35,640 nt of DNA from positions 1 to 35,640 of IMG/VR virus record IMGVR_UViG_2740892107_000010; one strand, written 5' to 3'. The stretch's first letter is position 1, and every line of letters starts with the position of its first letter. The DNA is from a virus. Taxonomy: Duplodnaviria > Heunggongvirae > Uroviricota > Caudoviricetes. Positions 5,814 to 35,048 of this stretch are shown piece after piece. The position numbers were made by a program, and so were the translations under genes. The notes below the pieces were generated by a model. It was given only the letters and a program-made list of their open reading frames with translations. It did no database searches and was not told where the DNA came from.

Positions 5814-8621
5814 ATGACGGCAGAGTACATCAGGGACTGGCAACAACCGCGCCACGCAGTGGGGCGTGAAGGAACGGGGATCCCCGCTCCTGAATCCGCG
5901 CTTTCCTCCTGGCTGGATGCCTACCGGGTAGAGAACGAGCGCCGCCAGGAAATAGCTGATGCGGCGTTCTCCGCCACGCCGCTGGGCAACCTGATTAATA
6001 AAAGCCTGGACGCACAGGAAAAACAGGACAAAACCATCACACTGGCAGGAGACGCCAGAAAGCAGGCACGCGGCGCGGTGGATGAAGCCATGGCCTCGCT
6101 GCGCCTGCTGCCGTCCTATCTGCGCGATCCGCTTATTCGCCACCTCTCCTTCCTGCGCAAAAAACAGGAAGCCGATCGCCGGAAAGGCAAAAAGAGCTGG
6201 CAGGCGGAACGCTATGCACGCGGAACCCTACGCAAAATATTCGAACGTCTGGATCGCACTGACGGACGCTGGCTGACACCGTGTTATTGCTCCCTTGCCG
6301 GACGCGAACGCCTGGACGATTTGCTTTACCTGCCGCAGCTCAACAAACACCAGATACAGACGCTGGCCACCATGACGGCGGCGATGTTCAGCAGCACTTT
6401 CGAAACACTCTGCGATGGCTTTGGTGCCAGAGATGGCGAGCTGACCATGGATGTAATGTTGAAGGCTTACCGGATGCTGGCTCGTATCGCATTATGCCTG
6501 CATATCATGCCGCCACATTACGAAGCCCTGAACAAGAGCGAACCGGATACGGAACTGCTGCCGGGCGCAATCCTTCGCCTGACCTGTGCGGAATGGTGGA
6601 AACGCAAACTGTGGCTTTTACGTTGCGAGTGGAGAGAAGAACAACTCCGCGCCGCCTGTCTGGTTTCCAGAAAAACATCACCCTATCTGAGCCAGGACGC
6701 GTTAAGCGAGTTTCGCGCACAGCGCGAGAAAACACGCGATTTCCTGAAAAGTTTCATGCTGGAAAACGAAGACGGGTTCACGATTGATCTCGAGACAGTG
6801 TATTACGCGGGAGTAAGTAACCCGGTTCACCGTAAGGCAGAAATGATGGCCACCATGAAGGGACTGGAACTTCTGGCCGAAGCCCGTGGCGACAAAGCGG
6901 TGTTTCTGACTGTCACCTGCCCGTCAAAATACCACGCTACAACAGAGAACGGTCATCCGAATCCCAAATGGAACGGGGCCACCATGCGCGACTCCAGCGA
7001 TTACCTGGTTAACACGTTTTTTGCGGCGGTCCGCAAGAAACTGAACCGCGACGGTCTGCGCTGGTATGGCATCCGCACGGTGGAGCCTCATCATGACGGC
7101 ACTGTGCACTGGCATATGATGGTCTTTGCTCATCCGGAAGAAATCGACAGCATCGTGGCCATCACCCGCGATATTGCCATTCAGGAAGACCGCCACGAAC
7201 TGGGCAATGATATTACTCCGCGCTTTAAGGCGGAGTACGTCGACGGCTCAAAAGGCACGCCAACCAGCTATATCGCGACCTACATCGGAAAGAACCTGGA
7301 CAGCCGCGCCGTGGATGGAATCGACCCGAAAACGGGCAAACCACGCGTTGACCACGAAACCGGAAAATCAATGGCCGAGAGCGTGGAGCGCGCCATCGGC
7401 TGGGCGCGCCTTCATCGGGTCCGCCAGTTCCAGTTCTTTGGCATCCCCTCCCGTCAGGTGTGGCGTGAACTGCGCCGCCTTGCCAGCCAGATGGCACGCA
7501 ACCCGGAAGGCCCGCAACGGCTGAAGGATGACGCAATGGATGCGGTACTCGCTGCCGCCGATGCCGGGTGTTTTGCCTCCTACATTGAAAAACAGGGCGG
7601 CGTACTTGTTCCACGTAAAGACTACCTGATTCGCACCGCCTACGACCTCGCAGATGAGCTGAACGATTACGGCGAGCAGAGTGTACAGATTTACGGGATC
7701 TGGTCGCCGCTCATCGGGGAGTCTTCCCGCGTGTGCACGCACCCGGATAACTGGAAGCTGGTAAGACGTAAACCGGAAGCGGAAGACAGCGCCCGCGAAA
7801 ATGGTTTTGACCTTCAGGGCGGCCCTGCCGCCCCTTGGACTCGTGGCAATAACTGTCCCCGTGTACAGGAAACGAGCAACAACGGAACAGAACAGCCGGA
7901 AGAACGGCCAGCACCGTGGCCGCAGCTTCCTGACGGCGTTGAAGTAAATGAATGGATGCGCTCACTGAAACGGCACGAACGCCGGGCGCTGATGCGTTCG
8001 CTTCGTGACAAACAGGCAAAAAACAGCAGCGATGAAATGCAGAACTGGACACAGAGCCGCAAACAGCCGCGACCTTTGCCTGATAACCACGAGTTACTCG
8101 CTAAAGAATGGCGGGAGTCTGCCGAATCTCTCGGCCTGCATATCGGTGAACAACAGATGCTGCACCTGTTACGGGGCGGCAGTCTGTACGTTGACGGCAG
8201 CATCATTGCACCGCAGGGATTTGAAATTGTACGCAAACCAGATACCCGACCGGACAGCCGAATCACGCAGCTCTGGCAGCGCCTGAGCCGTAATCACGGC
8301 GTAAGCAGCACGGAGATCCGCCATAACCCGGTCGCCAGCTATCTGGAACAGCTAGGGGCATCAGACCCCGAAGCCGCCGCACGCCTGGCATCCACACTTC
8401 AGCAGGACCAGAACACCATGAAGACACCCGTTACCGTGCTTTCTGACATGCTGCGCGCCATCCGTGACGCAGAGCACGCACAGAGAATCAGTGAAACCAC
8501 TGAACGCGCCCACCGCAAAGCAGACCTGCTGCGGGGTGGCCTGACCCGTGGGAACAAAAAACAGACAGAAACGGGATTCACAAATCCCGTAAATGAGCAA
8601 AAAAAGCGCCGCGAAATATGA
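5814..8621 (+). CDS. A: Rolling-circle replication initiator (P2 gpA family endonuclease)
   Basis: 935 aa; HUH-type motif VHWHMMVFA near residue 430; position after the early operon as in P2/186. Confidence 0.85.
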   Translation: MTAEYIRDWQQPRHAVGREGTGIPAPESALSSWLDAYRVENERRQEIADAAFSATPLGNLINKSLDAQEKQDKTITLAGDARKQARGAVDEAMASLRLLPSYLRDPLIRHLSFLRKKQEADRRKGKKSWQAERYARGTLRKIFERLDRTDGRWLTPCYCSLAGRERLDDLLYLPQLNKHQIQTLATMTAAMFSSTFETLCDGFGARDGELTMDVMLKAYRMLARIALCLHIMPPHYEALNKSEPDTELLPGAILRLTCAEWWKRKLWLLRCEWREEQLRAACLVSRKTSPYLSQDALSEFRAQREKTRDFLKSFMLENEDGFTIDLETVYYAGVSNPVHRKAEMMATMKGLELLAEARGDKAVFLTVTCPSKYHATTENGHPNPKWNGATMRDSSDYLVNTFFAAVRKKLNRDGLRWYGIRTVEPHHDGTVHWHMMVFAHPEEIDSIVAITRDIAIQEDRHELGNDITPRFKAEYVDGSKGTPTSYIATYIGKNLDSRAVDGIDPKTGKPRVDHETGKSMAESVERAIGWARLHRVRQFQFFGIPSRQVWRELRRLASQMARNPEGPQRLKDDAMDAVLAAADAGCFASYIEKQGGVLVPRKDYLIRTAYDLADELNDYGEQSVQIYGIWSPLIGESSRVCTHPDNWKLVRRKPEAEDSARENGFDLQGGPAAPWTRGNNCPRVQETSNNGTEQPEERPAPWPQLPDGVEVNEWMRSLKRHERRALMRSLRDKQAKNSSDEMQNWTQSRKQPRPLPDNHELLAKEWRESAESLGLHIGEQQMLHLLRGGSLYVDGSIIAPQGFEIVRKPDTRPDSRITQLWQRLSRNHGVSSTEIRHNPVASYLEQLGASDPEAAARLASTLQQDQNTMKTPVTVLSDMLRAIRDAEHAQRISETTERAHRKADLLRGGLTRGNKKQTETGFTNPVNEQKKRREI

Positions 8622-8697: not shown

Positions 8698-9657
8698 ATG
8701 AAAATTTGTATCGACGACGGCTCCACCAACATCAAGCTGGCATGGACTGAGAACGGCGAACGCCGCAACGCCATCAGCCCGAACAGCTTCAAGTCGGAAT
8801 GGTCTGCGCCGTTCGGTGGCACGCATCCCGCGAACTACATGCTTGATGGCGTGCGCTATGGCTTTGATCCGGTCAGCGATCGCTTTGTCCAGACGACTGA
8901 CACGCAATACCAGTACAGCGATGTGAATGTAATCGCCATTCATCACGCGCTGGTCAAATCAGGCATCACACCACAGGAAGTGGATGTGGTTGTCACCCTG
9001 CCACTGAGTGAGTATTTCGACACAAACGCACAGCCGGACATGGCCAACATCAACCGCAAAAAAGCGAACGTCATGCGCCCGGTGGAGTACCAGAACGGCG
9101 AAGCATTCACTATCCGTAACGTACGGGTTATGCCTGAATCCATTCCGGCTGGCTTTAAAGCACTGGCTGACATGAGTCCGTTTGAATCCCTGCTGATTGT
9201 GGATTTAGGCGGAACCACGCTGGATGTGGCAAAGGTTCAGGGACAACTGGCAGGTATCAGCCAGGTGTTTTGCGATCCACACGTAGGCGTTTCCCTGATG
9301 GCCGATGCCGTACTGTCGGTGATGGCCACTAACGGTATGCGTACCAGTCACCACATCGCCAATACCATTATCGAACATCGCCATGATGAAGCCTGGCTGC
9401 GCCAGCACATCCACAATGACGCGCATTACGCCAGCCTGATGGCGGTTATTCGTGAAAAGGAAGAAACACTGAAACAACGCGTGATCCGCGCGCTGGCGGG
9501 TTTTTCGGGTTACGGGCGGGTGATGGTTGTCGGTGGCGGGGCGGAGATTGTGGCACCCGCTATCCGCGAAGCCTGCGGAGTTAATGCGACTTTCATCGCG
9601 GACGGGGTGCCACAGTTTGCTCTGGTTAATGGGCTGTACGCAATGGACAAGGAGTAA
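8698..9657 (+). CDS. parM: ParM/StbA-like actin-family ATPase
   Basis: N-terminus MKICIDDGSTNIKLAW...ISPNSFKSEW...YQYSDVNVIAIHHALVKSGI closely resembles plasmid R1 ParM as I recall it (MLVFIDDGSTNIKLQW...). Confidence 0.8.
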   Translation: MKICIDDGSTNIKLAWTENGERRNAISPNSFKSEWSAPFGGTHPANYMLDGVRYGFDPVSDRFVQTTDTQYQYSDVNVIAIHHALVKSGITPQEVDVVVTLPLSEYFDTNAQPDMANINRKKANVMRPVEYQNGEAFTIRNVRVMPESIPAGFKALADMSPFESLLIVDLGGTTLDVAKVQGQLAGISQVFCDPHVGVSLMADAVLSVMATNGMRTSHHIANTIIEHRHDEAWLRQHIHNDAHYASLMAVIREKEETLKQRVIRALAGFSGYGRVMVVGGGAEIVAPAIREACGVNATFIADGVPQFALVNGLYAMDKE

Positions 9658-9660
9658 ACC

Positions 9661-9973
9661 AATGACGACACCAACCAGACGAATAAGTTTCTATCTGAAG
9701 CCTGCCGCCGTCAAGAACGAAGGCGAAGCATGCGCCTGGCTGGACAGCCTTACACCAGAAGCCCGTAAAAACGGCCAACGCGTGGCTTTTCTGGCTGGTC
9801 TGGCGCTTCTGAAAATGAATCCGGCAGAGGCTTACCGACTGGCAGCATGGGCTGACGATGAGGCGTTATCAGTGACACAAACCAGGACAGAACGCCCCCT
9901 GTCACAGCCAGTACCAACCGCACAGATAACCAGTCAGATGGCCGGAAATATCAGGGCATTATTTCCTGAATAA
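9661..9973 (+). CDS. parR: ParR-like adaptor protein
   Basis: 104 aa directly after parM; RISFYLKP...LDSLTPEARK...AFLAGLALLKMNP...ALFPE resembles R1 ParR as I recall it; AGGAG ribosome-binding site. Confidence 0.6.
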
Positions 9974-10036: not shown

Positions 10037-10420
10037 ATGAGCAAAATCAACTATCAGGCATTACGTGAACGTTATTCACCTGCACCAGTACCAAAATGCC
10101 CTATTTGCGGCGAAGAAATGTCAATTCAGCGAATATCTGGAGCACTGGTTGTTTATGGCTGCTCCGGTTATGGTGATGATGGAGATTTCAAAATTGGTCG
10201 AACTCTTGCCGACGAACATTATGAAAAATCACGCGTAACAGTGTTGGATGTCGGGGATCCTGAAGTATTGGCGCTACTTGATTGGCTGGAAACCAAAGAC
10301 AACCGAATCGCTGAACTGGAAAAAATCGCCACTGACTATGCACTTAAATTCCAGAAAGCACAGGACGCATTAAAGTACGCCGCTTTGCTGCATAGCAGGA
10401 CAGTGCAGCTACAAGACTAA
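10037..10420 (+). CDS. Hypothetical protein with N-terminal CxxC zinc-ribbon-like motif
   Basis: 127 aa; CPICGEE ... YGCSGYG; helical C-terminal half. Confidence 0.55.
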   Translation: MSKINYQALRERYSPAPVPKCPICGEEMSIQRISGALVVYGCSGYGDDGDFKIGRTLADEHYEKSRVTVLDVGDPEVLALLDWLETKDNRIAELEKIATDYALKFQKAQDALKYAALLHSRTVQLQD

Positions 10421-10510
10421 CTTAAAGCGGAAGATTAATACATGGTGAGTCGGGGTAATTTGTTTTTATCCCGACAAATAAACAAAAAAGTGGACTATCT
10501 CTGTAGTATC

Positions 10511-11042
10511 TTATTCAGCATCGTCTCGTGCAGTCTGTGCATACGTCACAACAACGCCCAATGCATTAGTTTTCTTTTCAACATAGATAATATTGTCATA
10601 TTCATAGTTACCATACGGATAGCAAATAAGAATATTTTTATGCAGATCGGGATCATCAACAAACGCTCCGGAACAGCTTCTTGAACTACCGGATGTATAC
10701 TCATACGGTGCAACATATGATGATGTTACTCCTGGTAAAAAATAAGTCACCATCATAAGAGGGATAATCAGGAATATCCCTGTAAGAATGCAAGAGCCAG
10801 CATAAACCTTCAGGTATTCCGACAGTCCTTTCCAGCCACTTTGCTTCACTACCCCCCCTCTTCACCAGAAACAAGGAGAAGAAAAAGGACATACCCATAC
10901 TACACAAGATGTAATAATTGGATATACGCGAATTAAGATATGTAATCCTGTAGATATCTGCCCTCCACCAGTAAAAGAGGAAAATAATCCCTAGCACTGA
11001 AACAGTCATGCAAATCAAATAAGGATATGAATCTTTCTTCAT
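10511..11042 (-). CDS. AT-rich membrane protein gene, split into two overlapping frames at a C7/G7 tract
   Basis: ORF 10701-11042 (two hydrophobic segments) and ORF 10511-10849 (one hydrophobic segment) overlap in different frames; removing one base from the C7 run at 10852-10858 fuses them into about 175 aa. Confidence 0.5.
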
Positions 11043-11519
11043 GTCTTGCGCTCATTAAAATTTCCCTGCTACGAACAAATTTACCATCCGTTTTTTGCGC
11101 AGAAAACAGCACGATGCACACTGCACGATAGTGCACAAATTTGCACAATTTTTTTGAACGACTTTTTACCCTTCCGGCCAGCATGGCGGCTGGATCCGTC
11201 AAGGATCCGTGCGTGCACAAAAAAACGCGCTTTTTCTGCGCGCAGGTGACGGGGGAACAGCCCGCGTTTCAGGGGGTAAATAGCATTCCCTGAACGATGT
11301 CGCAGCGACACAACAGAATGGCTGTATTTCTCACACTGAGCGTGAAAAAGACGTGAGGGCTTTTGATTTGATGGGGTGACAGACAAGGCCGTCAAAATCG
11401 CACTGAGGCGGCAAGAACATGCAGTCGACGCGGTGGGATTGCGTAAGAGCCTGACCGTCGATGATGGCGATAAGCTGGAAGACGTCGTGAAATTATCTGA
11501 TTGATACAGGAGCTGGAGA

Positions 11520-11572: not shown

Positions 11573-12619
11573 TCAGGATGTGGGCTGAGTGTCCAGCAGT
11601 GCGTAAGGGTTAAAGCGGATCACCTCTTCGCCAAGCCAGTCATTGATATGCTTCATGGCCTCCATTACGGGCATCAGCTCGTTAATTGCGTAAACCCGCG
11701 CTGCCTTCTCCACATCACCAAACGCACTTTTTTCGCCCGGCATCGCCCCCATCAGTTGCGGCGGAACGCGGTGCGCAGCCAGCACATCATCACGGGATGC
11801 CGCCTTAACATTCATGAACTCATCTTTTGCGGTGATCTGCTGGAACGGCAAAATTTGCACCCCCTCTTTGCCCCCGTTGGGCGCGTGAATGAGCACGTTT
11901 TTAAACGCACCACCACCACGTGCACCCTGTAGCGTTTCCTTCAGGGAGTCCATGCTTTCGCGGTTTACCTGCGCTGCACCGATGTAGATGATGCACCCGG
12001 CGTGGGATCCGTTGTCGTAATACAGTTTTCTGAACATGTCCGCCGAATGAGACAGGCTGGCCGAGAGTAATGCGCCGAGATATTCCGGCATGCCGTAGAT
12101 TTCCTGGTTAATGTCAGGATTCATCAGGTGGCACACTTTGCCAGAGCGAAACTGAAACGCGTCCTTGCCATCCTGCACATACCACCATGATTCAAGATCG
12201 CTTCCGCGTCGCATGTATTTCGCCAGGGCGTGCCGTAATTTAAGCGGTTCGCCGAGCATATTGCTTCGAAGCTCAAGGAATGCGTTACCGAACACAAACC
12301 AGTCCAGCGCCAGCGCCGAGAAATCCTGCCGGGAAAGCAGCGGATGCGGAATATAGCAGCCGAGCAATACATTACGCTTAAAGTAAAGCGCAGACTGATG
12401 CCAGGACGTTTGCCGGGCAGCTCTTGCCAGACCGTACCAGTCCACCGGGGTTTCATACCACCGCCCGTTATCAGCACAGTACATATTGTCCAGCAGGTCA
12501 TGCCCGGTCAGGCGGTAAGGACCATCAAATGTGAATGCACTGAGCGACGATTCTTTCCTGAGCGCATCAGCGAGATCAATGCGTGAACTCATGCGCACTT
12601 TTTTATTTTTTCTGCTCAT
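11573..12619 (-). CDS. Q: Portal protein (P2 gpQ family)
   Basis: 348 aa, size and position match P2 Q; start overlaps the terminase stop (ATGA). Confidence 0.85.
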   Translation of the reverse strand: MSRKNKKVRMSSRIDLADALRKESSLSAFTFDGPYRLTGHDLLDNMYCADNGRWYETPVDWYGLARAARQTSWHQSALYFKRNVLLGCYIPHPLLSRQDFSALALDWFVFGNAFLELRSNMLGEPLKLRHALAKYMRRGSDLESWWYVQDGKDAFQFRSGKVCHLMNPDINQEIYGMPEYLGALLSASLSHSADMFRKLYYDNGSHAGCIIYIGAAQVNRESMDSLKETLQGARGGGAFKNVLIHAPNGGKEGVQILPFQQITAKDEFMNVKAASRDDVLAAHRVPPQLMGAMPGEKSAFGDVEKAARVYAINELMPVMEAMKHINDWLGEEVIRFNPYALLDTQPTS

Positions 12620-14370: not shown

Positions 14371-14523
14371 TGCTCCCCCTGAGTAATTACAGGAAGATTA
14401 CCCGCGCGCGAAACCGTTCTCCTTAACCCCCTGTTCTGGCTGTTTTCTTACAACAAAAGCCCTTTGTATCAGCCTGTTACGCTTTGCCATCATGACTGAA
14501 GAACCAGTCAGAGGGGCAAAACT

Positions 14524-15360
14524 ATGGCTAATGAAAAAAAGACATCCCGCAAAAAGTTTCGCGTGGCTGTCTCTGGATCAACTGTTGATGGACGCGAAAT
14601 CAGCCCGGTGCATCTGCGTGAAGCCGCCGAGAACTTCAACCCGGATGTTTACGCTGCCCGCGTGAACGTTGAGCACTATCTCTCGCCATGCCCGTCAAGC
14701 GAATTTTCCGCAATGGGCGATGTCACCGCACTGAGTACGGAAGATATTACGGAAGGCCCGCTGGCCGGACGTACTGCGTTGTATGCAGAAATCGAACCGA
14801 CCGAGCGCATGAAGCAGCTTGTCGCTGACGGCAAGAAAATCTATTCCAGTATCGAACTGCACCCGCAGTTCTCCGTTAACGGGCGCGCCTATCTGGTCGG
14901 GCTGGCGATGACCGACACCCCGGCAAGCCTGGGCACTGAGCGCCTGAAATTCACGGCACAGCAACGTCAGGCAGTAATGACGTTCAACAGTGTCCAGGGT
15001 GAGGCACCGCTCATTTCCGAAGCCATCGAGTCTGAAATCATCGAAATGGCAGAACAACGCCAGGAAGAAGGCACCCAGTGGTTTAACCGCGTAATGGGGA
15101 TTATTGGTCGTGGCCGCAAAGCGGATGACGCCAGTTTCTCCCGTATTCAGGAAGCGGTGGAAGGCGTCGCAACGTCACAGGCCGACATTATCGACCGTTT
15201 TAATGTGCTGGAAACCCGCCATCAGCAGGACCGCCAGAAAATCACGTCACTGACCACAGAGCTGGCAGCACTGAAGGAAAAACTGCGCACGCAGGACGGC
15301 GATCCGCAGAACCGCTTCACCGCAACGGGCGCAGCCTCCGACCAGCTGGCTGACTTCTGA
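14524..15360 (+). CDS. O: Capsid scaffolding protein (P2 gpO family)
   Basis: 278 aa, first gene of the rightward late capsid operon. Confidence 0.85.
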   Translation: MANEKKTSRKKFRVAVSGSTVDGREISPVHLREAAENFNPDVYAARVNVEHYLSPCPSSEFSAMGDVTALSTEDITEGPLAGRTALYAEIEPTERMKQLVADGKKIYSSIELHPQFSVNGRAYLVGLAMTDTPASLGTERLKFTAQQRQAVMTFNSVQGEAPLISEAIESEIIEMAEQRQEEGTQWFNRVMGIIGRGRKADDASFSRIQEAVEGVATSQADIIDRFNVLETRHQQDRQKITSLTTELAALKEKLRTQDGDPQNRFTATGAASDQLADF

Positions 15361-25982: not shown

Positions 25983-26006
25983 AGGCGCTTACTGCGCCTT
26001 TTTTTG
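25983..26006. terminator. Bidirectional rho-independent terminator
   Basis: Stem aggcgc / gcgcct with loop ttact, A-run before and T7 after; overlaps the last codons of the convergent acetyltransferase gene. Confidence 0.65.
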
Positions 26007-26531
26007 TCTTATAACAGGAGTTATTTCGTTTATATATATTGAGTTGGAAGGAATAGATTTTGTTACCAGAGCATGAGCACCTATCGTAACGTTATCACCG
26101 ATATTAACTTGCCCACCAAGGATAGATGAATTGCAACCTATATCAACATTATCTCCAATAGTAATCATTGCCTCATTGGAAGGGGTTCTTAGACCAATAG
26201 TAACACCTTGCTTTATATGTAGATTTCTCCCTATCACACAGTTTTCTGTAATAACAATACCTGATAAGTGAGCAATATCTAAGCCTGGCCCTATACTCAC
26301 TGTTAAAGGAATCTCAACATTATAATCGCGATGAAGGTTTGCTCCGATGCGTTTGCCCACCCGGCGCATGAACCCTCCTCTGCTGTATAGATAGCTGGCC
26401 ACTCGCCACCAAAACATAAAGTGTTTTCGCCTATTGCGTCTGGTGCGAGTTAAAGCTTTTCTCCATGAAAACTCATGGTTTCCGCCTATAACTTCTATTT
26501 TTATACACTCCTTTAATGTTTTTATATCCAT
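25989..26531 (-). CDS. Hexapeptide-repeat (left-handed beta-helix) acetyltransferase, AT-rich cargo gene
   Basis: 180 aa with repeated [LIV]-G-x4 hexads (IGDNVDIG, VNIGDNVTIG, VIGRNLHIKQGVTIG); AT-rich; convergent with the tail-fiber operon. Confidence 0.75.
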   Translation of the reverse strand: MDIKTLKECIKIEVIGGNHEFSWRKALTRTRRNRRKHFMFWWRVASYLYSRGGFMRRVGKRIGANLHRDYNVEIPLTVSIGPGLDIAHLSGIVITENCVIGRNLHIKQGVTIGLRTPSNEAMITIGDNVDIGCNSSILGGQVNIGDNVTIGAHALVTKSIPSNSIYINEITPVIRQKKAQ

Positions 26532-32445: not shown

Positions 32446-33555
32446 ATGACCGACACCACCATGCAATTGCTCAGTCAGAGCACAGACCCCGTAAAAATGC
32501 CGGATTTTGATATTCTCGCGGAGGGTAAAACGCTGTCCGGCGTGGCAGAGCGCCTGATGAGCCTGTCGCTGACCGACAACCGGGGATTTGAGGCAGACCA
32601 GCTCACCATCACGCTGGATGATGCGGATGGTCAGTTGCAGCTACCGCCACGGGGCGCGCGCCTGACGGTTCTCATTGGCTGGAAAGGCGAACCGCTGACA
32701 GAAAAAGGGTCTTACATTGTTGATGAAATCGCACACGAAGGACCGCCAGACAGGCTGACTGTTTCAGCCAGAAGCGCAGATTTTCGGGATGAATTTAACG
32801 TTAAACGTGAAGTGTCCTGGCATGATGTGACCGTTGAGCGCGTGGTATCCGCCATCGCTCATCGGTATGGTCTGAAACCGCAAATCAGCGAAATGCTGAT
32901 GGATATTGAAATCGACCACGCCGACCAGACCGAAGAAAGCGACATGTCCTTCCTTACGCGCATGGCGGAAATGCTGGGCGCAATCACTACGGTAAAAAGC
33001 GGTAATCTGTTATTCATCATGCCAGGTGGTGGCGTGAACGCACAGGGCCAGCCGTTGCCCTCGTTCGCCATTACACGCAGCAGCGGCGATCGCCATCAGT
33101 TCCGTATTGCTGACCGCGAGGCGTATACGGGGGTACGCGCCTACTGGCTTGATCTTAATTACGGGAAAAAGAAAAAAGTCAGCGTGAAACGCCGTAAACC
33201 GCCAAAACCCAAAAAGGAGAAAAGCAGCAGCCGTGAAGGTGATTATATGGAAGGCGCGGAAGGCAATGTGTTTGTGTTACGCAAGACTTATCAGAACGAG
33301 CAGGCAGCAAGACGCGCAGCGGCGGCAAAGTGGCAGCAACTACAACGCGGAGCCGCATCATTCTCCATCACGCTGGCGCGTGGACGTGCAGAACTCTATC
33401 CCGAAATGCATGGCACGGTGACAGGCTTCAAAAGTGACATCGACAATCAGGACTGGATTATTGCAAAAGCCGAGCACACCATTGATAACAGCGGCTTTAC
33501 CACGCAGCTTGAGCTTGAGGCAAAAATCCCGGAATGGATAGCAGAAACAGCGTGA
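32446..33555 (+). CDS. D: Tail protein D (P2 late control gene D family)
   Basis: About 369 aa from ATG 32446 with GGGAGGG ribosome-binding site; the longer upstream ORF start at 32314 looks like an artefact. Confidence 0.8.
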   Translation: MTDTTMQLLSQSTDPVKMPDFDILAEGKTLSGVAERLMSLSLTDNRGFEADQLTITLDDADGQLQLPPRGARLTVLIGWKGEPLTEKGSYIVDEIAHEGPPDRLTVSARSADFRDEFNVKREVSWHDVTVERVVSAIAHRYGLKPQISEMLMDIEIDHADQTEESDMSFLTRMAEMLGAITTVKSGNLLFIMPGGGVNAQGQPLPSFAITRSSGDRHQFRIADREAYTGVRAYWLDLNYGKKKKVSVKRRKPPKPKKEKSSSREGDYMEGAEGNVFVLRKTYQNEQAARRAAAAKWQQLQRGAASFSITLARGRAELYPEMHGTVTGFKSDIDNQDWIIAKAEHTIDNSGFTTQLELEAKIPEWIAETA

Positions 33556-33646
33556 ATGTCTTAAATGTATTAGTTCAGATATGTACTAGCAATAAACATA
33601 GTTAGAAAGGCCGCTAACGCGGCCATATTAATTAAAACTCCAGTTA

Positions 33647-34816
33647 CTAATATTGAGAAAGATAATCAGCGACTCCATCTGCAGGGTTTCGCCCACCAGT
33701 ATAAATTGTGCCTAATTCTTGAGGTGTAACATATGTTGTAGGCCAAATGGCCATATTTTTAAAATAGTTATCTATTTTTATTCTTTGAAGTTCTTTAAAG
33801 AGATAATCTTCTAAGTCATTTCTTTTTAGACAGTTAACATAATAAGCAGCCGCACTTGCTACTATATCTACAATTTGTAATTGAGGATACTCTTGTGATG
33901 AATGGAATGTCAAAGAACGAGCTTTAATTGGCAATTCAAATTTTCTTCGATCATAACCATATGCCTCCGTAATTTTTGATATATCCATAAATTTATCAAA
34001 AATATCTTTCTTCTCTGTAATAGCTTTGGAATCGTCATGCTTAATATAAAAACCATTAGGGTATAATTTACCCCATTCTACACAGTGTCTAAAGAGGCTT
34101 GGTATAGATGGATCTAATGTGCTTTTCTCAACACCTTCCAATATATCATCAATATCGCTTCTGGTAATACTAATTCTGTTTATTATATCTGTGAATATCT
34201 TATCACTTGAGCATATCTTTAACTCATCAATTACCCTGTAAAATTCATCAATTGACTCAGTCGATTGGCTTCTGATCATATTCATAAAACACTGATACAT
34301 TACCTCTGTTTTTTCCTCCCCACAGAAAGCAGGGAAACAGAAATAGTAAACATTAGACAGAGCTAGATTCTGTCCATTTATATAAAGATCTATTCCTCTA
34401 TTAGAGCACCACGTCTCGATCAAAATATCAACAATCTTTGCTGTTAGCATGTATTTTTTATCGACCAAGTATATTTTAACATTCTCTTCATTGACATATT
34501 TGCTTTCAAGAAGCCTAATGATGCCATCCTGACCAGATTTTCTACGTCTAAGAGTTTTAAAGTGGGCTTCTGTTGGAGACTTGCTTCCGGTTAGTTCTAA
34601 TGCCTTAAGCGCATCCTGTTTACTAATACTACTTGAACTTAAGGTAAAAACAGGTTGCAATGGATCGAGTAAATTTCCGCCAGTATTACCTGATTCATCA
34701 AAAAATATATCAGGCTTTATATACAACATTTTATTTATCTTTGCCGCTAAGTTTCTTTTTTTCTCATTTTCTCGCTTAATTTTATTATCTCGCCTACGTT
34801 GACTATTCTTTCCCAT
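33647..34816 (-). CDS. AT-rich 389-aa cargo protein of unknown function (DUF3800-like N-terminal motif, tentative)
   Basis: Low GC; GAGG ribosome-binding site 5 nt upstream of ATG 34816; N-terminal IFFDESGNTG motif that I recall as typical of the DUF3800 family; inserted between D and ogr on the opposite strand. Confidence 0.7.
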   Translation of the reverse strand: MGKNSQRRRDNKIKRENEKKRNLAAKINKMLYIKPDIFFDESGNTGGNLLDPLQPVFTLSSSSISKQDALKALELTGSKSPTEAHFKTLRRRKSGQDGIIRLLESKYVNEENVKIYLVDKKYMLTAKIVDILIETWCSNRGIDLYINGQNLALSNVYYFCFPAFCGEEKTEVMYQCFMNMIRSQSTESIDEFYRVIDELKICSSDKIFTDIINRISITRSDIDDILEGVEKSTLDPSIPSLFRHCVEWGKLYPNGFYIKHDDSKAITEKKDIFDKFMDISKITEAYGYDRRKFELPIKARSLTFHSSQEYPQLQIVDIVASAAAYYVNCLKRNDLEDYLFKELQRIKIDNYFKNMAIWPTTYVTPQELGTIYTGGRNPADGVADYLSQY

Positions 34817-35048
34817 AAATACCTCACAATCTGAATTAGATATCCCAATTTAACGCATTAATAACATAATGTTATGATATCACACAATCAAAATAACGTG
34901 CTGATTTTAATGTATCAGGTTTGACTAGCTATTCTTTGATAAGCGAATAATAAGAATGTCAGCCCCTCAACTCAAAGCGGTTTAGTCAGTTGGAATCGGA
35001 GCTAGTAGAACTTAAAATAACAGAAGCACCACGTTAAGGGAGGTCTCT

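Follow-up and report, generated by a model that had tools for sequence, protein, structure and literature searches.

Between gpA and gpQ, close to cos, P2-like phages carry a described defence hotspot (Rousset et al. 2022, PMC9122126). Another point of comparison is SieA of phage P22, an inner-membrane superinfection-exclusion protein of 162-164 amino acids (Leavitt et al. 2024, PMC10883804). The sequence analysed here, referred to as the window, is the whole 35,640-nucleotide stretch of IMG/VR record IMGVR_UViG_2740892107_000010, and in this hotspot it holds a small membrane-protein gene that is interrupted at a run of seven G. As for runs of this kind, classical G/C contingency tracts are usually at least 8 nucleotides long, and phase variation through simple repeats is rare in mismatch-repair-proficient E. 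coli. Our explanation, which we consider fairly probable as a whole, is that the locus is a slippage-inactivated single-gene cargo cassette in a P2-like prophage of E. coli.

The run, C7 on the + strand (...CACTACCCCCCCTCTTC...) and G7 on the coding strand, parts two overlapping minus-strand ORFs in different frames, the downstream one being +1 relative to the upstream one (Table 1). The first-pass annotation had pointed to this run and these ORFs, which are indeed present, and had expected that deletion of one base would give a membrane protein of about 175 amino acids with about three helices. Removal of one base from C7 does produce a fused ORF, of 176 amino acids, and three helices are predicted for it, with hydrophobic segments by hydropathy at about residues 5-27, 42-61 and 77-107. 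In the G6 form the tract is made up by the codons AAG AGG GGG GTA, within Arg62-Gly63-Val64, and it falls in the predicted cytoplasmic loop between the second and third transmembrane segments (TM2 and TM3).

Table 1. Coordinates of the membrane gene, its homopolymer run and the surrounding features in the window.
Feature	Coordinates	Strand	Remarks
gpA	5814..8621		
ParM	8698..9657		
Ead/Ea22-like gene	10037..10420		
Shared cassette, 757 bp	10423..11179	.	about 76% identity to lambdoid phages 434, mEp332 and 2B8
Disrupted CDS, 176-aa prophage cargo protein	10511..11042	-	native ATG at 11042, stop ends at 10511
Downstream ORF, internal GTG, 112 aa	10511..10849	-	loop, TM3 and beta domain
Upstream ORF, ATG, 113 aa	10701..11042	-	about 63 native residues (TM1-TM2) and an out-of-frame tail of about 49 aa
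G7 run on the coding strand (C7 on the + strand)	10852..10858	-	G6 with one inserted G
Tract with immediate flanks, coding sense			GGTGAAGA-G(n)-TAGTGAAG
TGGTAAATT, extended -10-like element, putative own promoter	11078..11086	-	in a block conserved between P2-type and 434-type alleles (alignment)
Terminator-like GC hairpin followed by T7	11215..11243	-	between the portal gene and the cassette
Portal gene	11573..12619		

C7 is the sole G/C run of at least 7 in the window, the 14 other runs of this length being all A/T. About four G/C runs of 7 are expected in 35.6 kb under an iid estimate, so the run alone is not improbable. What goes beyond chance is its place, exactly at the frame junction of ORFs that jointly match one conserved protein end to end. 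An SD-like GAGGGG (10855-10860) overlaps the tract, 7 nt upstream of the internal in-frame GTG. Phage 434 has GTA in its place, and one Salmonella allele has ATA, so this GTG is not conserved. The exact 113-aa product of the G7 form is absent from approximately 15 billion database proteins, and gene callers skip that ORF even on G7 DNA.

The family evidence argues for one gene. The repaired product matches a 176-aa E. coli protein (P0001) with 99% identity (E=9e-112, 100% coverage). Matches in the family are restricted to E. coli, Shigella, Salmonella and Enterobacter, with no functional name on any of them. A profile search of 1.84 billion representatives (50% identity clustering) returned 58 clusters only, whose full-length members have 166-189 amino acids and are aligned over positions 1-170. 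Conservation runs uninterrupted over the junction in the family alignments (...VK(K/R)G(I/V)VKQSGWK...). Distant members, at 51-66% identity, share the MKK/MKN start and have 173-176 amino acids. In Salmonella and Enterobacter, the homologues (55-66% identity) consist of one ORF of 173-176 amino acids each, in the same gpQ-gpA slot and orientation. Comparison with the allele of phage 434 gives a dN/dS of 0.10 overall, 0.13 in the N half (upstream of the tract) and 0.09 in the C half (downstream), which points to purifying selection on both halves in one frame.

On these alignments, positions 10511 to 11042 are a single gene and not two, and descent from one reading frame is evident. This agrees with the core of the first-pass annotation, a membrane-protein gene interrupted by a single-base change in homopolymer length. 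It had also named beforehand what would speak against such a gene, namely two ORFs conserved as separate genes or no intact fused homologue in any relative. Relatives as a rule have an intact fused homologue, and the two ORFs are not conserved separately.

Comparison of tract length in related prophages, which had been proposed as a check, gave a G6 baseline with an intact 176-aa ORF. Complete E. coli genomes were searched with an 81-nt query centred on the tract. All 62 matching records lie in the 95-99% identity band, so that none of them is G7, and the 60 rows listed among the 62 all span 80 nt, which corresponds to G6. A gapped tract pattern accepting 4-12 bases was used on viral and metagenome contigs and found 7 IMG/VR and 5 metagenome loci, all G6 (12/12), with the 176-aa ORF intact where the locus is complete. 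A scan of genome contigs with the tract pattern gave no match. Sampling through the neighbouring Ead/Ea22-like protein is independent of how the membrane gene was called, and here the 176-aa form is present in 23 of 24 contigs, four of which (L028, L029, L031, L032) were checked directly and are G6.

The one exception among these 24 contigs (L030; GCA_001637845.1, LSEL01000142.1) carries G7 and matches the window without a difference over 3,384 nt. The Logan re-assembly of SRR3143615 (L019) is also G7, identical over 3,311 nt. More than 90 copies were sampled, and G7 was found in these two only, both very probably from the window's own isolate, to which the +1 event (G6 to G7) is confined. Among the G6 relatives, the nearest are 2-3 substitutions away in approximately 3.3 kb, and one of these represents 18 near-identical contigs. 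Such near identity makes the +1 event very recent, within a clone.

A shorter tract, G5, was found in three samples (L020, L023 and L026, covering ERR11861388, ERR11749506 and ERR1190965), which, like L019, were retrieved through the exact 112-aa gene call and are thus a sample biased towards broken alleles. The three G5 backgrounds are distinct, and on each the closer neighbour is a G6 copy and not one of the other two G5 copies: L023 has 2-3 mismatches from G6 loci and 35 from L026, and the flanks of L020 are highly divergent. When each G5 assembly is compared to its nearest G6 neighbour, the tract is the sole homopolymer indel. Outside the tract, the gene is free of frameshifts in all loci, and its only other lesion is a deletion in L013. 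With at least three -1 events on separate backgrounds and one +1 event, all independent, the run is a hot spot at which slippage has occurred at least four times. Off-length alleles probably make up no more than a few percent of copies.

The L013 copy, on the food metagenome contig UOYY01004067, is G6 and has an in-frame deletion of 44 amino acids that removes most of the beta domain, leaving a product of 132 amino acids. In the Ead/Ea22-like gene, positions 10253-10256 are G4 in the window and G3 in L010 and L014, a second length polymorphism of a short G run within this cargo block, which would frameshift those two copies. PGAP reports this gene as an incomplete pseudogene.

The first-pass annotation had left open a sequencing error, a decayed gene or a slipped-strand phase-variable switch. 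We favour a slippage mutation, and it is quite probable that G7 is real, meaning a freshly broken gene. Along approximately 18 kb compared with relatives, no further homopolymer indel falls in coding sequence of the window. Recurrent single-base length differences are limited to two, the tract and 14518-14521, with the remaining indels being compensating pairs in divergent segments. All structural genes of the window are intact. It is on the lack of another coding indel, the intact structural genes and the agreement of two assemblers that G7 is rated a real mutation.

An error of sequencing or assembly, with the isolate truly G6 and the extra G a homopolymer miscall, appears improbable. Such a miscall would fit the restriction of G7 to one isolate among the copies sampled, and homopolymers are the classic place for indel errors. 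The NCBI draft and the Logan assembly may also rest on one read set, there is a second window-specific homopolymer difference (the non-coding one at 14518-14521), and some Logan-derived family members (P0056, P0061) have multiple frame changes, as from error-prone reads. However, G7 was obtained by two different assemblers with the rest of the sequence identical, and there is no further coding frameshift in 35 kb. Moreover, G5 occurs in three unrelated samples, and the freedom of those assemblies from other homopolymer indels indicates that the tract does slip in nature. We infer a real allele instead of a read error from two G7 assemblies that are probably one isolate and possibly the same reads.

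The run at 14518-14521 is A4 in the window and A5 in all seven aligned relatives. The spacer that contains it separates the start codon of the gpO scaffold gene (ATG at 14524) from an SD-like GAGGGG.

The phase-variable option stands as far as the mutational hot spot is concerned and falls as an evolved switch. We consider it very improbable that the tract is a slipped-strand contingency locus, kept by selection for frequent ON/OFF toggling. A switch of this type would be expected to show several tract lengths in nature, and G5, G6 and G7 all occur, while an envelope-type accessory gene in a defence hotspot belongs to a class that is often phase-variable and a slip back to G6 restores the exact wild-type protein. 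Nevertheless, the baseline tract is only G6, and even the G7 of the window falls below the length of 8. Samples unbiased towards broken alleles have the gene ON in 62/62, 12/12 and 23/24 copies. The tract is not conserved over alleles and orthologues either, with AGGGGA (AAG AAG GGG ATA) in the 434-type and G3-G4 in Salmonella and Enterobacter.

Since the G run is found only in the E. coli P2-type allele, it results incidentally from the codons used in a single lineage. The G6 baseline, with more than 95% of copies in frame, identifies the tract as a hot spot of mutation, not as a contingency tract that is maintained. As judged from these alleles, the tract is an ordinary slippage hot spot, not a dedicated genetic switch.

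Lastly, it is barely credible that the split state is functional, either with full length restored by programmed recoding (a +1 ribosomal slip on GGG GGG, or one G lost by transcriptional slippage) or with two separately made fragments working together (TM1-2, and a piece with TM3 and the beta domain that starts at the internal GTG). Exactly ...VKRGVVKQ... would be regained by a +1 slip on the G run, and the SD-like motif precedes a start that gene callers prefer, but the in-frame G6 is the norm, which rules out programmed frameshifting as a family property, the GTG is missing from other alleles, and no clade keeps the two-ORF arrangement.

In the preferred reading, that of slippage inactivation, codon choice in the E. 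coli P2-type allele creates the G6 run in the TM2-TM3 loop, and replication slippage in this isolate would have added one G. Translation from the native ATG would then leave the frame after about residue 63 and end as the 113-aa product. A frameshift in this cytoplasmic loop takes TM3 and the beta domain from the native product, and the gene would thereby be inactivated. The hot spot would knock out the gene repeatedly and, in principle, reversibly, at ordinary mutation rates.

Three intact G6 copies that we examined are called “frameshifted” pseudogenes of 576 nt by RefSeq/PGAP (L001 1582-2157, L002 1583-2158 and L017 21038-21613). The annotated pseudogene start corresponds to position 11087 of the window (ATGGTAAAT...) and is modelled on 434-type proteins of 188-223 amino acids. 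In the P2-type allele, the N-terminal extension (window 11043-11087) contains an in-frame TAA TGA. Together with the distant homologues that start at MKK, these stops suggest that the extension is probably untranslated regulatory DNA, and the intact copies would be flagged as frameshifted owing to reference models with a probably spurious N-terminal extension. Other gene callers often choose the internal GTG even on intact G6 DNA, and the 112-aa product is present in more than 1000 contigs. With these pseudogene flags, hotspot inventories built on proteins miss the gene and so have a concrete blind spot. The frameshift itself is a textbook slippage knock-out, and its recognition is a useful, if unsurprising, annotation correction.

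In terms of location, the gene order is gpA, ParM, StbB, Ead/Ea22-like, the membrane gene on the opposite strand, portal and terminase. The membrane gene has the location of hotspot cargo in a P2-like prophage, with gpA on one side and gpQ on the other. The first-pass annotation had put it where P2 carries tin and old, and this is correct, as it is found between the replication module and the portal gene, in the same way as on the P2 map. The same annotation described the region as the most AT-rich in the window, which does not hold: GC is 0.398 at the region, a value also seen in two other 500-nt bins (1-500 and 26001-26500), whereas 33501-35000 has 0.33-0.35. Relative to its flanks, with GC of 0.54-0.56, the membrane-gene region is nevertheless distinct at approximately 0.40.

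The truly most AT-rich part of the window contains a 389-aa DUF3800 ORF (33647-34816, minus strand), flanked by the tail gene D region and ogr, which is probably the cargo of another hotspot and has no PADLOC hit. A 180-aa hexapeptide-repeat (acyltransferase-like) ORF on the minus strand (25989-26531) follows the tail-fibre assembly gene, and the AT-rich patch in which it lies corresponds in position to the Z/fun hotspot of P2. Inside the P2-like hotspot, 8698-9973 encodes a plasmid-partition pair, ParM (StbA_N/ParM_N) and a StbB-like protein. Published hotspot tables contain hundreds of StbA-containing loci.

The cassette that the window shares with lambdoid phages starts 3 nt after the stop codon of the Ead/Ea22-like gene and includes approximately 137 bp upstream of the ATG. 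Its composition is unlike that of the backbone and it forms a discrete module common to unrelated phages. By these features, the membrane gene is a single-gene accessory cassette (“moron”) in the gpA-gpQ cargo hotspot.

The cassette may have its own promoter, with TGGTAAATT as an extended -10 element in the conserved upstream block. A consensus promoter scan gave no site upstream of the membrane gene. On the portal side, the terminator-like hairpin has a modest fold energy (-15.9 kcal/mol, z = -1.25). This putative terminator would shield the membrane gene from read-through of the late Q-P operon. The hairpin downstream of the membrane gene is without a U-tail.

A segment of 78 bp (11180-11257) is missing from the phage 434 version of the cassette upstream region. 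Within it lie a palindrome (GGATCCTTGACGGATCC) and, with T7 behind it, the terminator-like hairpin (GCGCGCAGAAAAAGCGCGT). From 11258 to 11320, weak homology to 434 is seen again.

In the Salmonella P2-like prophages (L036 and L038-L041), small unannotated ORFs are often found between the portal gene and the homologue. An 81-aa and a 119-aa ORF are both present in L036 and L039, one of the two in L038, L040 and L041, and L040 has in addition a 123-aa ORF. The homologue stands alone in L037 and in L042 (Enterobacter), so these small ORFs are not obligatory partners.

As for the cohesive end, next to which the first-pass annotation had placed the interrupted gene, the 19-mer of P2 (GGCGAGGCGGGGAAAGCAC) does not occur in the window, even with 3 mismatches, and the end junction of P2 (NC_001895) aligns only inside the portal gene of the window. 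The absence of the P2 19-mer suggests that this peduovirus uses a different cos sequence.

The protein architecture was modelled with AlphaFold on the 176-aa database protein P0001 (pLDDT 75, pTM 0.60). The model has helices at 5-32, 38-61 and 69-101 and five strands over 105-171, the latter forming a C-terminal beta domain of approximately 70 amino acids with pLDDT of 78-88. Two cysteines of this domain, C123 and C140, are invariant. These cysteines and the K/R-rich loop between TM2 and TM3 suggest an N-in/C-out topology, with a beta domain that would be periplasmic and is possibly disulfide-bonded. The protein was also considered as a lipoprotein and rejected, as YLIC is no lipobox and Cys11 is not conserved.

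Searches for a functional assignment by homology gave no Pfam or PADLOC hits, and fold searches were uninformative. There is a match to PHROG 1416 (E=1.6e-45, aa 90-175), a family with no known function whose profile has only 90 positions, which indicates that it was built from truncated gene calls. A PKD-repeat protein of 1,055 amino acids gave a marginal match to the beta domain only (E=4e-4), which we judged uninformative. In the published literature on mEp332 and phage 434, we found no characterisation of the gene.

Location, architecture and mobility are the grounds on which we tentatively suggest, as a possible role somewhat short of an even chance, that the intact protein serves in lysogenic conversion or superinfection exclusion at the inner membrane. 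Analogues for such a role are P22 SieA, HK97 gp15 and T4 Imm. A small uncharacterised family, found in the P2 defence hotspot of E. coli, Salmonella and Enterobacter and in lambdoid phages, can reasonably be put forward as a candidate for a new function in exclusion or defence. A more far-reaching proposal, which we regard as unlikely, is that the gene would be an unrecognised single-gene, envelope-acting exclusion or defence factor, moving between P2-like hotspots and lambdoid phages. It would have a low-rate ON/OFF polymorphism by G6 slippage, driven by fitness cost, and would have been missed through the RefSeq pseudogene flags.

When compared to known systems, the tract resembles the poly-G/C loci of Neisseria, Haemophilus and Campylobacter, in that a length change of a coding poly-G shifts the frame and more than one length is present among isolates. 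Unlike in those contingency loci, the tract is short (G6), the ON state is overwhelming and the tract is not conserved among alleles.

The likeness to old and tin of P2 lies in the gpA-gpQ slot, in transcription away from the portal/cos side, as in the P2 old-tin mRNA, in a composition that is AT-rich relative to the backbone, and in a presence that varies among related phages, with P88-like phages lacking the membrane gene. The membrane gene differs in having no similarity to Tin or Old and no PADLOC hit. Homology to either was rejected: with BLASTP, Tin gives E=1.9, and Old gives E=0.032 over 18 residues.

With SieA, the protein shares a comparable size, three transmembrane segments, as predicted by hydropathy and AlphaFold, and the state of a prophage-borne single gene without a partner. 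In contrast, the cysteine-containing beta domain is distinct to the 176-aa protein and no homology is detectable. As a SieA homologue it was rejected, with an hhalign probability of 0.15%, a BLASTP E=3.2 and the motif FxRYPxEAxxFNK absent.

Finally, the “putative membrane protein” of phages 434 (CPT_434_36), mEp332 and 2B8 is a true homologue, with 78% amino-acid identity, and the similarity at the nucleotide level includes the upstream region. These lambdoid versions are annotated with N-terminal extensions (188-200 amino acids) that are probably not translated, and have AGGGGA with no G6 run. They differ as well in their site, which is between xis and exo (ea/b region), antisense to the pL operon.
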